A DNA stretch of 18,420 bases from positions 1 to 18,420 of the forward strand of contig JBDRCO010000082.1 in assembly GCA_043821645.1 (NCBI GenBank), given 5' to 3'. Positions 2,480 to 7,811 of this stretch are shown one piece after another. The position numbers were made by a program, and so were the translations under genes. The notes beneath the pieces were generated by a model. It did no database searches. It was not told the DNA's origin and was given only the letters and a program-made list of their open reading frames with translations. Origin of the DNA: Pseudomonadota bacterium (lineage in GTDB: Bacteria; Myxococcota; JACRCW01; JAFGSX01). The stretch's first letter is position 1. Each line of letters begins with the position of its first letter.

Positions 2480-3038
2480 TTGCCAGCACCACCCAACGCG
2501 CCATGAGGGCTTCTCCTTGGCAGGCTCGATCGCATGCGTATTGTCGTCGAGGCCAGCACCAAGTCGTTTTGGATGGCAAACCAGCTTGAGGCACTGGGGC
2601 ACGAGCCCGTCGTGGTGGGCCCTGGCCGCAAGAAGGCGATCGTCGCCATCGCGCGCAAGCTGGCAAGTGTGCTGTGGTCGATGTGGAAGCGAGAGAAGTC
2701 GTTCGATCCCATTTGTTCGACCTGGCGTGACGACGGAGAAATTTTAACGTCACCGCGGAGCCAAGGTGAAGTTTCGGCGGCCATCCACAGGATTGAGTGC
2801 GGCAGTTTCCATGTGTTCAAACGCCGAGTGGCTAATAGCACCGTTCTTTCGAAAACCAACCTGTGCCCGGGTATCAAGGCCCGACCCAGAGCACATGTCG
2901 ATGGCTGAGGAGACGCTCTCGACGACGACACCGGGGCTGCGCTGAACAAGTTGGAGGTCAGGAAGGGACGGCACGACAGCATTGCGATGGCGCGGGTGAG
3001 GTGAGGCTTTACTTGGCATGGCGGGCCGCTCTATCGAT
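2480..3038 (+). mobile_element. IS110/IS1111-family remnant, copy A: internally deleted transposase plus 3' non-coding end
   Basis: MRIVVEASTKSFWMANQLEALGHEPVVV (DEDD RuvC-like N-domain piece) joined to GRKKAIVAIARKLASVLWSMWK (IS110 C-terminal motif). 2724-3038 is homologous to 6704-7019. Left boundary approximate. Confidence 0.85.
2731..3038 (+). ncRNA. candidate bridge RNA/seekRNA region, copy A
   Basis: Non-coding 3' end of an IS110 transposase; colinear with 6711-7019; 35-nt identical block 2898-2932 = 6880-6914; imperfect stem 2789-2800/2838-2848. Confidence 0.55.
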
Positions 3039-3199
3039 GACACACTCCGGCGGGCTGGCGATGACCACATTGGTTTTTCCGGATCGCCTTGCTGGTATCC
3101 TTCGGACATGCGCGCATCAAGGCTCGGTCGACCGGTCACGCTCACCTGCAACCAACGAGAATACCTCGCGCAGCCCAGTTCAACCGGGAGGGACCTCCC

Positions 3200-5061: not shown

Positions 5062-5213
5062 AAAAAATCAACAATTTCATGTGGTAGTTCCTCCTACCTG
5101 CGGTCCGTGCCCGGATCGGGCCAGAAACACACTAAAAATGCGCGACTTCTGGCGTGCCCGGGGTGCACCGAGCCTGCGGCACGGCACCAGAACGGGCGCC
5201 CAAAGAGGTGCAG

Positions 5214-5263
5214 GGAATAGGTGGCCCGTGGAATAGGTGGCCGTGGAATAGGTGGCTGGCACC
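5214..5263 (+). repeat. three direct copies of GGAATAGGTGGC ending in the imperfect palindrome GGTGGCTGGCACC
   Basis: Copies at 5214-5225, 5230-5241 and 5245-5256; palindrome 5251-5263. Confidence 0.85.
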
Positions 5264-5274
5264 GAACCGGGTGG

Positions 5275-5440
5275 CGCTGGTAAACGCACCGAGAAAGTAG
5301 ATGGCCGCGATCACCCGGGTGTCGAGCAGGCCGTGGTGGGCAGCAACCCCGGCACTGAGCAGCAGGGTCTCGCTCTGTATCAAGCTTCCGCCGAGCACAG
5401 CGAGGTAGCCATAGTGCTGGATCAGATCGGCCACGGTCAT
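5275..5440 (-). pseudogene. DedA-family membrane protein, N-terminal fragment
   Basis: MTVADLIQHYGYLAVLGGSLIQSETLLLSAGVAAHHGLL matches the DedA N-terminus (YGYxAV…EGETxLLxAG); GGAGAGG RBS. Similarity is lost after ~55 aa, next to the repeat cluster. Confidence 0.75.
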
Positions 5441-5500
5441 GACCTCTCCCGCGCGAGGATCATGTCACCTGAAACACATCGCCGCATGAGCACGCCAGCT

Positions 5501-5790
5501 GGTGCCATCGATAAACGACGGTGGGCTCGTGCCCCAGCGCTTCGAGCTGGTCCGCCATCCAGAAGGCCTTGGTGCTGGCCTCGACGACGATGCGCATGGC
5601 GCCGAGCTTGCCAAACACCTTCCTCAAAGCCTCTGGCTTGTTGCTGACCTTGCCCTCGCGCTGGACCTCGCGCTTCTCGTCGACGATACAGAAGTGACTC
5701 GACCTCTTGCCCATGTCCAGTCCACAATAGTTCAAGGTCGGCTCCTTTCCGCTGTGCCTCGAGCACGTTGCCCCCGGGAAAGGTGCCACC
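5501..5790 (-). mobile_element. IS110-family remnant, copy C: transposase N-terminus (TTG 5735) fused directly to the right-end sequence
   Basis: AAGGAG RBS, then LNYCGLDMGKRSSHFCIVDEKREVQREGKV…RIVVEASTKAFWMADQLEALGHEPTVV (catalytic D and E of the DEDD domain). It is followed at once by TTTATCGATGGCACC, identical to 7011-7025. Confidence 0.85.
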
Positions 5791-5844: not shown

Positions 5845-5929
5845 CGGAAGAGGTGCCTGGCTCTCGGAAGAGGTGCCTGGCACTTTCCTCCGACTTTCCT
5901 CCGGGTGGTTACAGAGGGCTCTGTCCCCT
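5845..5929 (+). repeat. REP-like cluster: CGGAAGAGGTGCCTGGC x2, ACTTTCCTCCG x2, AGGGCTCTGTCCCCT
   Basis: 17-mers at 5845-5861 and 5865-5881; 11-mers at 5882-5892 and 5893-5903; imperfect palindrome 5915-5929. Confidence 0.8.
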
Positions 5930-5984: not shown

Positions 5985-6428
5985 TCAGCCACCGGCGCCC
6001 TCAACGTCGTCTGGCGGATTCTTGAAGACACCCCCGTAGGCGTTTTCCCTGTCCACGATCAGCGGACGGCACTCGGTGACCGGCCCCCAGGCCTGCGACT
6101 TGGGGTCGTTCGAGGCCACCATCGGCAGACCTGCCTCCTGCCACCCCTTCACACCTTCCTCGTACACCTGGACATTGGTCATCCGAAGGTCTTGCAGGCG
6201 CACTGCGGCATCGGCTGCCAGGTGACACGCCCCACCGGCCGAGTAAACGACGACCAGCGAGTCCGGCTTCATGACGCTGGCAACCCGAAAGGTCAACGAA
6301 CCGAGAGGCGCGGTCATCGCACCTGGCAGGTGACCTTTCTCGAACTCCATGTCGCCTCGCACGTCAAACAGCGCCACCTTGCCGGTGTGCAGCAGCTCGT
6401 CCAGCCGCTCTGTCGTCATGTTGGTCAC
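5985..6428 (-). CDS. single-domain rhodanese-like protein
   Basis: LFDVRGDMEFEKGHLPGA, VVVYSAGGAC and VQVYEEGVKGWQEAGLP motifs; GAGGAGG RBS before GTG 6428. Confidence 0.9.
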   Translation of the reverse strand: MTNMTTERLDELLHTGKVALFDVRGDMEFEKGHLPGAMTAPLGSLTFRVASVMKPDSLVVVYSAGGACHLAADAAVRLQDLRMTNVQVYEEGVKGWQEAGLPMVASNDPKSQAWGPVTECRPLIVDRENAYGGVFKNPPDDVEGAGG

Positions 6429-6710
6429 GAAATCCTCCTCTGGACTCTGCGCCCTGTTGCCAGTGGATGTAGCTCAGGAGGGACAGGGCGGCAGCCGGCT
6501 GACGATCGAGATCCGGGCGAGGGTCCTCTGTGGGTCTGGGCCCCAGAAAAGGTGCCATCGAAAAAGTGGCTGCGTGACTGGGGTCTGGTGCTGGTCAAGC
6601 GCCTGGGCCGCAACAAGGCCATCGTCGCCATCGCGCGCAAGCTGGCGAGCGTGCTGTGGTCGATGTGGAAGAACGAGCGCGCGTTCGAGCCCATGTACGG
6701 CGTGGCGTGA

Positions 6711-7019
6711 CGACGGAGATTGCAGGTCACCGCGGAGCCCAAGGTGAGCCGTCGGAGGTCATCAAGAGGGTGGTGTGCGGCAGGTGCCATGGCAGGACAA
6801 CCGTGCCGATTGTGTGATGGCACCCACCCTTCGAATACCATCCTGTGCCCGGGCATCCAGGCCCGATAAAGAGCACCTATCGATGGCTGAGGAGACGCTC
6901 TCGACGACGACACCAGGGATCCGCTGAACAGGGAGGAGGTCAGGCAGGGGAGACACAGAACATAGCGATAGCTCGGGCGAGGTCAGGCTGTGCTTGACAT
7001 GGTGGGCCGCTTTATCGAT
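6711..7019 (+). ncRNA. candidate bridge RNA/seekRNA region, copy B
   Basis: 5' hairpin (CGACGG 6711/CCGTCG 6749; TCACC/GGTGA). Stem 6767-6778/6820-6830 encloses an internal loop containing AGGTGCCAT. A second domain has TATCGAT before hairpin GAGGAGACGCTCTC. Both loop motifs match the element junctions. Confidence 0.65.
6994..6999 (+). promoter_or_regulatory. outward-facing -35 hexamer (TTGACA) near the IS110 right end
   Basis: Perfect TTGACA 18 nt before the AT core; copy A has TTGGCA at the same place. IS110/IS1111 elements form junction promoters on circularisation. No convincing -10 identified. Confidence 0.5.
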
Positions 7020-7124
7020 GGCACCCTCTGTGGGCAGCTTTTGGGCTGGAAGTCATCACAGCCTGTCGGGTTTGTTCCCTCACCAGCACCCATAGTACAA
7101 TCAAGAGCCACGCCGGGAGGGTTC

Positions 7125-7811
7125 ATGAGGAAGCACCTGCAGCTCGCCATCCTTGCCTCTGGCCTGGTCTTTTCACTCGCGACAACAGGCCTGCCGGAGC
7201 CCGGAGAAGATGATGCGGGTGGTGGCGCCGATTCCGGCTCCGTGAATCAGGAATGCACCAACCCTGTTCAGGCGCCGACCGGCAGCGCCAGCCTCACCGG
7301 TGCGGACTTCACGCCAGTCGACGCCGTGGCCTTTGTCATGCGCCGACAGGACCTTGCGAGCGAGGCTGGCCAGGTGCCCTACATGACGAATCTGGAGATC
7401 AAGTTGACCGACTATCCCGGGGCCTGCGGTGTTGAAAACGCCGGTCTCAATGTGCGAGGTGCGCAGTGGTTCCGCCTGGCCCTGATCGCACCTTCGGAGT
7501 CAGAGTACCCAGCCCTGCCCATGCCAGGCACCTATGCCTGGAGCGATGCGCTGCCCATGCCCTGGGATACCTACACCTTTCGTGCCGGGTGGAAGATCTG
7601 GGACTGCAACCTCGACTGCGAGCCTTGTGGCCAGCTCGTCGCCGGAACACCCTCGGGGACATTGACCCTGACCGCGGTCAGCGAAAGCGAGGTCTCGGGC
7701 AGTTTCTCCTTTGATAGCGGCGGAGATGGTGTCTATTCGGGCTCCTTCACGGCCCCCATCTGCACTAGTGGCGTGCCCGAGGACGAGCGTTGCTGCTGGA
7801 CGGGTGAATAG
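7125..7811 (+). CDS. secreted Cys-containing hypothetical protein
   Basis: GGAGG RBS before ATG 7125; signal peptide MRKHLQLAILASGLVFSLA; C-terminal beta-rich SGTLTLTAVSESEVSGSFSF…YSGSFTAPIC. Confidence 0.8.
   Translation: MRKHLQLAILASGLVFSLATTGLPEPGEDDAGGGADSGSVNQECTNPVQAPTGSASLTGADFTPVDAVAFVMRRQDLASEAGQVPYMTNLEIKLTDYPGACGVENAGLNVRGAQWFRLALIAPSESEYPALPMPGTYAWSDALPMPWDTYTFRAGWKIWDCNLDCEPCGQLVAGTPSGTLTLTAVSESEVSGSFSFDSGGDGVYSGSFTAPICTSGVPEDERCCWTGE

Follow-up and report, generated by a model that had tools for sequence, protein, structure and literature searches.

A predicted bridge RNA (seekRNA) gene in the truncated tail of an IS1111-group insertion sequence of the Myxococcota, and the wiring of its guides

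A truncated element and its relatives

The window, i.e., the whole 18,420-nucleotide stretch of DNA that was analysed, is contig C82 of a 7.07-Mb, 140-contig assembly. At 6558-7018 it holds what is very likely the tail of an IS1111-group insertion sequence, in which the non-coding region encodes a two-loop bridge RNA (seekRNA) and the copy itself is most likely a non-autonomous relic (Table 1). The element is 5'-truncated, and there remain only the last ~50 codons of the transposase gene, the non-coding region, 308 nt long when counted from the stop codon (6710) through 7018, and the right end. When the full-length transposase of the relative L009 (338 aa) was used as a tblastn query, residues 288-337 matched 6558-6707. 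In the ORF ending at 6710, homology to IS110-family transposases is confined to the last ~50 codons, and DNA homology to C122, the longest copy in the same genome, starts at 6568. None of the four ORFs across the region (162, 50, 50 and 64 aa) had a Pfam match.

Table 1. Features of the element tail and of its surroundings, in window coordinates
Feature	Position	Strand	Basis
Inverted separate fragment, transposase codons 1-74 (DEDD domain), without left end	5508-5771	-	PF01548, tblastn
Right-flank-type half target plus core, read on minus strand (TG-GCACCTTTTCTGGGG); originally taken as left flank	6541-6557	-	junction alignment
Inverted 13-nt right-end tip, 2 differences from consensus tip; GGC overlap joins transposase remnant	6558-6570	-	junction alignment
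Transposase gene remnant, last ~50 codons, stop TGA 6708-6710	6565-6710	+	tblastn, DNA homology
3' non-coding region with predicted bridge/seek RNA gene, and right end	6711-7018	+	conserved in relatives
Target-binding loop (loop 1), outer stem, 5' strand	6767-6778	+	pairs with 6820-6830
Loop 1, 5' strand 6779-6789, ending in 5' guide CAGGTGCCA (RTG equivalent)	6781-6789	+	flank covariation
Loop 1, inner stem TGGC/GCCG (6790-6793/6805-6808) with variable hairpin	6790-6808	+	columns 99-102/131-134
Loop 1, 3' guide ATTGTGTG 6809-6816 (LTG equivalent; copies left target plus TG), then ATG 6817-6819	6809-6819	+	flank covariation
Loop 1, outer stem, 3' strand	6820-6830	+	consensus fold, pair counts
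Donor-binding loop (loop 2), 5' strand ACCATCC, candidate guide for the core and the start of the left end (TG-ATGG)	6837-6843	+	alignment and left ends; inferred
Loop 2, inner stem 6844-6849 with 6871, 6873-6877; encloses hairpin CGGG 6850-6853/CCCG 6862-6865	6844-6877	+	helices 4 and 5
Loop 2, 3' strand: TATCGA (right-end tip), TG (core), GC	6878-6887	+	sequence, alignment
TTGACA, -35-like box	6994-6999	+	right-end rows
Right subterminal inverted repeat GGCCGCTTTA 7005-7014, terminal TCGA 7015-7018, core TG 7019-7020	7005-7020	+	left-end partner TAAAGCGGCC
Right target GCACCCTCTG	7021-7030	+	sequence, flank comparison

A second piece of transposase gene was found ~800 bp upstream of the tail, where tblastn matched residues 1-74 at 5735-5514 on the minus strand and PF01548 was recognized at 5460-5789 (E = 4.9e-07). 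This inverted fragment is joined to an 8-nt right-end tip (5508-5515) and to TG-GCACC (5501-5507), and a rhodanese gene (5985-6428, minus strand) sits between the two transposase fragments. Because the N-terminal codons lie upstream on the opposite strand and only a C-terminal remnant adjoins the tail, the guide-RNA gene resides in a broken element, not an intact one. A single inversion linking 5508-5771 (minus strand) and 6558-7018 was considered, and it could not recreate both junctions. The presence of three right-end tips (5508-5515, 6558-6570 and 7011-7018) calls for two insertions or more, with deletions in addition. The tail sequence occurs in 14 copies in its own assembly, this copy included, many of them reaching contig ends. 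No complete transposase gene has been assembled anywhere in the genome; the copies of the element break the assembly.

The left boundary of the tail, at 6541-6570, begins with a half target and CA, after which an inverted right-end tip of 13 nt joins the transposase remnant via GGC; it contains no left-end-like sequence. When compared with the reverse complement of four right-end junctions, those of three other copies and the element's own right end, this segment agreed at 25-27 of 29-30 positions. The original prediction had taken 6550-6558 as the left flank of the element. Instead, the transposase gene is cut there, and the site is an inverted right-end junction. The octamer AGGTGCCA, found at 6550-6557, is TG plus GCACCT in reverse complement, and it is this octamer that the 5' strand of loop 1 copies. 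The identity of the 9-mer at 6550-6558 with that at 6782-6790 is thus explained by 6541-6570 being an inverted right-end junction which is copied by the 5' strand.

Relatives were collected from three sources, namely Myxococcota/Polyangia genome records (10 loci, 36-63% protein identity), a phylum-wide sample in which 36 of 401 genomes, our own counted, matched at E <= 1e-25, and metagenome contigs (73 stretches with the donor-loop motif). The loci and the genome itself were filtered for a conserved box neighbouring the donor-loop motif, which left 48 family instances with 33 distinct guide pairs. In the class to which the genome belongs, the transposase search matched none of the three other genomes. 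Relatives with both ends measure 1,456-1,476 bp, or 1,605 bp in one with an insertion in the non-coding region, and encode a 338-aa DEDD/Transposase_20 recombinase with PF01548 (E = 2e-13 for L009 and 5.3e-19 for L011) and PF02371 (Transposase_20; E = 3e-22 for the C122 copy, 1.8e-26 for L009 and 1.6e-25 for L011). Both domains are absent from the remnant at 6565-6710, as is the GL-P----S/T-G motif, which appears as GLVPSLYASG in the C122 translation. That motif and the defining features of the IS1111 group are taken from the available text of PMC11187229; the latter include subterminal inverted repeats of 7-17 bp with short terminal extensions and a transposase of 330-350 aa. The family has the DEDD domain, Transposase_20, subterminal inverted repeats, a long downstream non-coding region and site-specific insertion, and is assigned to the IS1111 group.

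In the genome, intact left ends (C5, C66, C67) read ...GAA(A/C)AGGTGCC-TG followed by the element sequence ATGGAGTAAAGCGGCC, and right ends read GGCCGCTTTATCGA followed by TG-G(G/A)CACC.... The left end consists of ATGGAG-TAAAGCGGCC and the right end of GGCCGCTTTA-TCGA. The 10-bp subterminal inverted repeats TAAAGCGGCC (left) and GGCCGCTTTA (right) have short terminal extensions, and the source copy has only the right end (7005-7018). Of the 75 right-end-like rows listed, 46 have TTGAC upstream of that repeat, starting 25 nt ahead of the core, the other rows being mostly chance matches to a loose pattern. In a circular form of the element, TTGACA, a 17-nt spacer and the hexamer GATGAT, made of GA from the right end, the core TG and AT from the left end, would constitute a junction promoter, in which the -10-like hexamer has 4 of 6 consensus positions. 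The Pjunc junction promoter of ISEc11, reportedly described by Prosseda et al. in 2006, resembles this arrangement in having a right-end -35-like TTGACA at a fixed distance from the end and a -10-like hexamer across the circle junction; ours is predicted from sequence only. Junction promoters are known for this element family (review PMC13604230, in the text available).

The TG core and the conserved two-loop structure

Intact left junctions read ...AGGTGCC-TG followed by ATGGAG, and right junctions read ...TATCGA followed by TG-GCACC. Empty sites consist of the left flank, TG and the right flank with no target duplication (AGGTGCC-TG-GCACC). The empty site at C112:17087, GAACAGGTGCC-TG-GCACCTTCCC, is exactly the left flank of the C66 copy plus the right flank of the C71 copy via one TG. 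Another was found at C12:8699 (AAACAGGTGCC-TG-ACACCTTTCG), and in L014 an empty target, AAGTCTC-TG-GCACGCACC, adjoins an occupied one. Since intact junctions and empty sites share one TG, the core is TG and not AT, as had been proposed. The proposed AT straddles the end of the element, its A closing the right end and its T opening the core. Among the true elements listed, TG is present at both junctions of every one, with the sole exception of L076 (AG). A loose-pattern search for uninterrupted palindromic sites was too noisy in this G+C-rich genome; a stricter half-site pattern worked. The target in the genome is the near-palindrome AGGTGCC-TG-GCACCT, and a true left half of it would also look like the sequence at 6550-6558.

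To derive a consensus fold, 36 of the 48 instances were aligned, with duplicates and copies cut by contig ends omitted. RNAalifold gave an outer and an inner helix around loop 1, an inner helix and a hairpin in loop 2, and one invariant long-range helix. For the 26 proposed pairs, 98.8% of the cells across the 36 sequences were standard pairs, as against 32-46% when the partners were slid by 1-3 columns. Seven pairs had changes on both sides, compared with 2.2 in shuffles, of which 0 of 500 scored as high; these pair counts, like the permutation counts given below, overstate independence because the sequences are related. In the outer stem helix (columns 79-87/146-153), 3 of 7 pairs were changed on both sides and 99.6% of cells were paired. 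The inner-stem pair 101/132 was GC in 18 cases, AU in 11 and UA in 5. The long-range fifth helix (columns 67-72/210-215) is invariant and never covaries. A covariance model made from the alignment scored 166.5 bits at 6719-6920 in the source copy, itself a member of the seed. It also found a distant AG-core subfamily that was absent from the seed alignment, and in that subfamily the outer stem GTGC/GCAC has become GCGC/GCGC, a further compensatory change. We conclude that the predicted two-loop RNA is conserved, with four helices kept paired by compensatory changes.

The pair counts over the 36 sequences bear out the stem that had originally been drawn by eye between AGGGTGGTGTGC (6767-6778) and GCACCCACCCT (6820-6830), along with the second domain behind it. 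The 5' hairpin of the original prediction (TCACC 6727-6731/GGTGA 6743-6747) was not recovered in the consensus fold. Nor was folding of the element's own sequence informative: the single-sequence fold of 6711-7019 was no better than shuffles (z = -0.79), 25 of 100 shuffles folding as well. Rfam gave no match, either for the whole source stretch at gathering scores or for 6600-7060 at E up to 1.

Guides, flanks and donor ends

The 5' guide of loop 1, CAGGTGCCA, is complementary to the top strand of the core TG plus the right target, and the ATG that follows the 3' guide is identical to the first bases of the left end. To ask if the loop follows the insertion sites, the last 9 nt of the 5' strand were compared with the reverse complement of core plus right flank, and 138 of 196 non-core positions matched over 28 unique pairs. 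Permutation gave 112.0 expected matches, and none of 20,000 permutations reached 138. The 8 nt of the 3' strand, compared with left flank plus core, matched at 70 of 90 non-core positions over 15 unique pairs, where 40.3 were expected and again 0 of 20,000 permutations were as high. The swapped wiring gave only background, i.e., 30 of 105 for the 5' strand against the left flank (15 unique relatives with a known left flank) and 46 of 168 when the 3' strand was set against the right flank in reverse complement. The two strands of the predicted loop 1 covary with the insertion flanks on opposite DNA strands, overlapping at the core.

Element L011 decides the wiring question because its target, GTTCAGTAC-TG-TCCAAAA, is non-palindromic; its 5' strand, TTTTGGACA, matched at 9 of 9 positions and its 3' strand, CAGTGCTG, at 7 of 8. 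In L122, the 5' strand is CTGGGGACA and the right flank is TG-TCCCCAG. The 3' strands of L013 and L014, GTCACTG and GTCTCTG, differ by one change that is matched in their left flanks, GTCAC-TG and GTCTC-TG. For the source copy, 7 of 9 positions of the 5' strand fit the right flank of the element itself (TG-GCACCCTCTG). Poor rows were retained in the counts, namely L090 (4/9), L014 and L089 (5/9 each), the second copy in the window (3/9), and L100 (1/9), in which an extra base shifts the register. The AG-core subfamily, which had been used for building nothing, served as an independent check. Its 5' strand matched at 60 of 72 positions over eight elements, one of which (L017) has a TG core, and its 3' strand at 37 of 48 over six. 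In this set L022, L024 and L027 scored 9/9, and L023 just 3/9.

In loop 2, TATCGATG (6878-6885) is identical at 8 of 8 positions to the right-end tip plus core; the donor ends hardly vary. The 5' strand, ACCATCC, is a candidate guide for the core and the start of the left end (TG-ATGG), with CCATC matching and one mismatch that is a different one in each lineage; here the ends barely vary, and covariation is thin. The GC at 6886-6887 corresponds to the first bases of the right target. The base after the loop 2 core is T in L011 and L122, whose targets are TG-T..., and A in L012 and L058/L078, whose targets are TG-A..., yet it stays G in L075, L088, L100, L101 and L109, despite guide or flank predicting otherwise. 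On the 3' strand of loop 1, the bases after TG are A/G-T where the left end starts ATGG, and AGG or AGA where the left end starts AGGAG (L027, L028). These patterns, which include few independent changes, are suggestive of handshake-like guides formed by the 2-3 bases past the core on each 3' strand. Such guides would explain why the matches first noted in this region ran past the proposed core.

In the mechanism we propose, the RNA would be produced from the non-coding region and bound by the recombinase. Loop 1 would read the target, and loop 2 the donor, i.e., the (right end)-TG-(left end) junction of the circular form. Within loop 2, the 3' strand, TATCGA-TG, would copy the right-end tip and core, and the 5' strand ACCATCC would be the candidate partner of the left-end TG-ATGG. 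The bases past the core on each 3' strand would copy the right half of the other partner.

Much of the original prediction survives this comparison. An IS1111-type bridge/seek RNA gene 3' of the transposase is supported by family membership and conserved structure, the order of a target loop followed by a donor loop stood, and TATCGAT(G), a copy of the right end and core, would be the left donor guide in IS621 terms. The covariation of the loop with the flanks was found as well (0 of 20,000 permutations), but with the 5' strand following the right flank. It was the guide wiring of the target loop that failed. That wiring had 6782-6790 as left target guide, 6878-6884 as left donor guide, a core AT and a left junction at 6558/6559. 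It was built on real identities: AGGTGCCAT is present both at 6550-6558 and at 6782-6790, TATCGAT is present both at 6878-6884 and at 7013-7019, and these flank and end matches exceed chance, belonging to the target motif and the right end, both of which recur across the family. The element is cut at 6558-6570, however, with an inverted right-end junction there, and intact junctions and empty sites give TG as the core. Further, the 5' strand, with the AGGTGCCA read as a copy of the left flank, matched left flanks at 30 of 105 positions, yet it tracks the reverse complement of right flanks at 138 of 196. Given also that the non-palindromic target of L011 decides against it, we regard the original wiring as extremely improbable.

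The possibility was also considered that the conserved 3' region acts as DNA, supplying recombinase-binding or end-recognition sites, and that the flank matches are captured copies of targets. The region does adjoin the right end, and its single-sequence fold is no better than that of shuffles. Compensatory changes that keep four helices paired, in contrast, point to constraint on a folded single strand. Moreover, one internal loop carries copies of both target halves, one on each strand and opposite in sense, a layout that fits the experimentally demonstrated RNA guides of IS1111 and IS110 elements, as far as described in the available text of PMC11187229 and PMC11208160; captured target copies would not be split and inverted in this way. 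A role of the region as DNA is very improbable on these grounds, and the two-loop guide RNA is the reading we follow below.

State of the source copy and relation to known systems

The source copy is probably a relic, because it has lost the left end and the recombinase gene, carries private changes, has a 3' guide that fits poorly, and shows no promoter-like site. The left end and ~290 of 338 transposase codons are missing. At 6774 the source copy has T where 35 of 35 other aligned sequences have A, and at 6877 it has C where 34 of 35 others have G, a change that breaks the closing pair of the donor-loop stem. The 3' guide ATTGTGTG, common to the copies on C25, C54, C105 and C109, is a poor match to the left target GGTGCC-TG, with 5 of 8 positions in agreement; the AGTGTCTG of the C122 copy matches at 6 of 8, plus a wobble. 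Neither promoter-like nor terminator-like sites came up in a scan of 6400-7200. The sequencing runs listed as containing this stretch included none of RNA, and two metatranscriptome runs that share a study with a DNA-matching run gave 0 contigs on 6400-7100; both outcomes are uninformative on expression. The matching DNA contigs span just ~6540-7025.

A role of the source copy in trans is possible, if unsupported. The copy would then be a live solo guide-RNA module, transcribed and serving or exploiting the recombinase of intact copies elsewhere, like the solo ssr9 of ISPpu9. The loops and most invariant positions are intact, and the copies on C54, C67 and C105 consist of the non-coding region only; all three begin at position 755 of the C122 copy, ~25 nt ahead of the stop codon of the transposase gene, and lie in contexts unrelated to one another. 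For ISPpu9, both solo ssr9 modules and circles of ssr9 alone have been described (PMC12288879, in the text available). The scan of 6400-7200 nevertheless gave no promoter-like site, the upstream gene is on the opposite strand, two private changes fall at invariant positions (6774 and 6877), and the left boundary holds an inverted right-end tip only, with no left-end-like sequence, so we consider a live module unlikely. A related reading takes up the common start of those three copies and the right-end tips that stand at either boundary of the source copy, the two in inverted orientation. Under that reading the non-coding region plus right end would form a selfish, mobile module built around the guide RNA, which the recombinase of intact copies would move or rearrange in trans via right-end junctions in place of a normal left end; this is speculative and improbable. 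We retain the relic as the preferred interpretation.

The kind of system is already known (PMC11187229, PMC11208160), and what is added here is a well-supported new member from a Myxococcota lineage, with corrected wiring. One close likeness is to the seekRNAs of ISEc11, ISPa11, ISKpn4 and ISPst6 (Siddiquee et al. 2024, PMC11187229), as described in the text available, in which the guide RNA is encoded in a long non-coding region downstream of the transposase gene. Those elements likewise have subterminal inverted repeats, and relatives among them are naturally re-targeted by changed guides. They have two short target matches on opposite strands that overlap at the insertion point; of these, the bottom-strand match comes second, 3' of the one complementary to the top strand. 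The present family differs in its Myxococcota lineage, its transposase being matched at 28-63% identity in the searches made. It also differs in its TG core (AG in the sister subfamily), in the near-palindromic repeat target in its own genome, and in the truncation of the source copy. ISPpu9 and Ssr9 (PMC12288879, text available) offer parallels in their full elements, internally deleted elements and RNA-gene-only copies, and in a repeated palindromic target. Ssr9 is reported there as not needed for ISPpu9 transposition.

The bridge RNA of IS621 (Durrant et al. 2024, PMC11208160; Hiraizumi et al. 2024, PMC11208158), in the parts of those papers available, has the two internal loops, one for the target and one for the donor, that are predicted here. 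In each loop one strand pairs left of the core on one DNA strand and the other pairs right of the core on the other. A 2-nt core lies within the guides, and extra bases by the core on the 3' strands would here fit the other partner in the manner of the handshake guides of IS621 (PMC11208158). In contrast to IS621, whose RNA is encoded at the left end, the RNA here is encoded at the right end, after the gene. The donor loop here encloses an extra hairpin, and our RNA has no match to an Rfam family. IS621 uses its 5' strand to pair with bottom-strand DNA on the left side of the core, and its 3' strand to pair with top-strand DNA on the right side (PMC11208160, text available). The guide order here is reversed in element coordinates, and reading the DNA from the opposite strand brings it into line with that of IS621.

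The principle is not a new one, as IS110/IS1111 elements have been known to carry out RNA-guided recombination since 2024. Bridge RNAs have been predicted in 93% of catalogued IS1111 elements (Durrant et al., PMC11208160, text available). The literature found included no IS1111 bridge RNA in Myxococcota, and related predictions may be present in supplementary tables. Handshake positions in IS1111 elements are likewise undescribed in the literature found on IS1111 and handshake, in the text available. IS1111-type systems are less studied than IS621, and the natural re-targeting series found here, with 33 guide pairs plus the AG-core sister subfamily, could be of use in working out how long the guides are, which mismatches they tolerate and where the handshake positions lie. 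For 6711-7018 itself, the appropriate annotation is an insertion-sequence remnant, not a regulatory element of the neighbouring genes.

Element debris and reiterated target halves

The rhodanese-domain gene, which is intact, sits between the two element fragments. The N-terminal transposase fragment is preceded by a right-flank-type half target, GGCACCTTTCCCGGGGG (5772-5790), and terminates in an 8-nt right-end tip, i.e., the element's last bases before the core, which is followed by TG-GCACC. Three right-end tips are thus found within 1.5 kb: that of the N-terminal fragment and those at 6558-6570 and 7011-7018. A Pfam search with the 102-aa frame found no match; by eye, the frame looks like the N-terminus of a small membrane protein whose remainder was lost at the element debris.

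Genes and transposase fragment near the element tail
Feature	Window position	Strand	Remarks
102-aa frame	5132-5440	minus	neighbouring gene
N-terminal transposase fragment	5501-5771	minus	left end lacking
Rhodanese-domain gene, intact	5985-6428	minus	PF00581, E = 4.3e-16

The left half of the target is reiterated in tandem at window 5214-5256 and 5846-5895 (GGAATAGGTGGCCCGT x2.8 and GGAAGAGGTGCC-TG x2), and the last tandem unit makes an empty target-like palindrome, AGGTGCC-TG-GCACTTTCC. Comparable clusters of target halves adjoin copies on other contigs of the genome, at C2:30669-30681, C105:304-323 and C112:17087-17118.

Further copies in the same genome

A second copy of the same element, ~80% identical, lies at window 2517-3043 and is older than the 6558-7018 copy. 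Its left end is missing, as are the first ~40 transposase codons; transposase residues ~40-84 are fused directly to residues ~304-332, after which come the non-coding region and the right end. The strands of its target-binding loop, loop 1, are CAGTTTCCA and AGTGGCTA; they differ from those of the main copy, and only 3 of 9 positions agree with the right flank of this second copy, TG-ACACACTCC.

Three copies elsewhere in the genome (C54:234, C67:13141 and C105:10468) consist of the non-coding region only. All start at the same point, corresponding to position 755 of the reference copy on contig C122, ~25 nt upstream of the stop codon of the transposase gene. The sequences upstream of this point are unrelated among the three, and on the other side each copy runs to a contig end. 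These guide-only copies recall the solo ssr9 modules described for ISPpu9.

A sister subfamily with an AG core

A sister subfamily with the same RNA architecture is present in Myxococcota genomes (loci L021-L028, L030 and L049). It is set apart by an AG core, a (C/T)AGA right-end tip and GCGC/GCGC stems. At one of these loci, L030, a left-end-like sequence directly abuts the right end, which suggests either that two copies lie in tandem or that a circle junction was assembled here.
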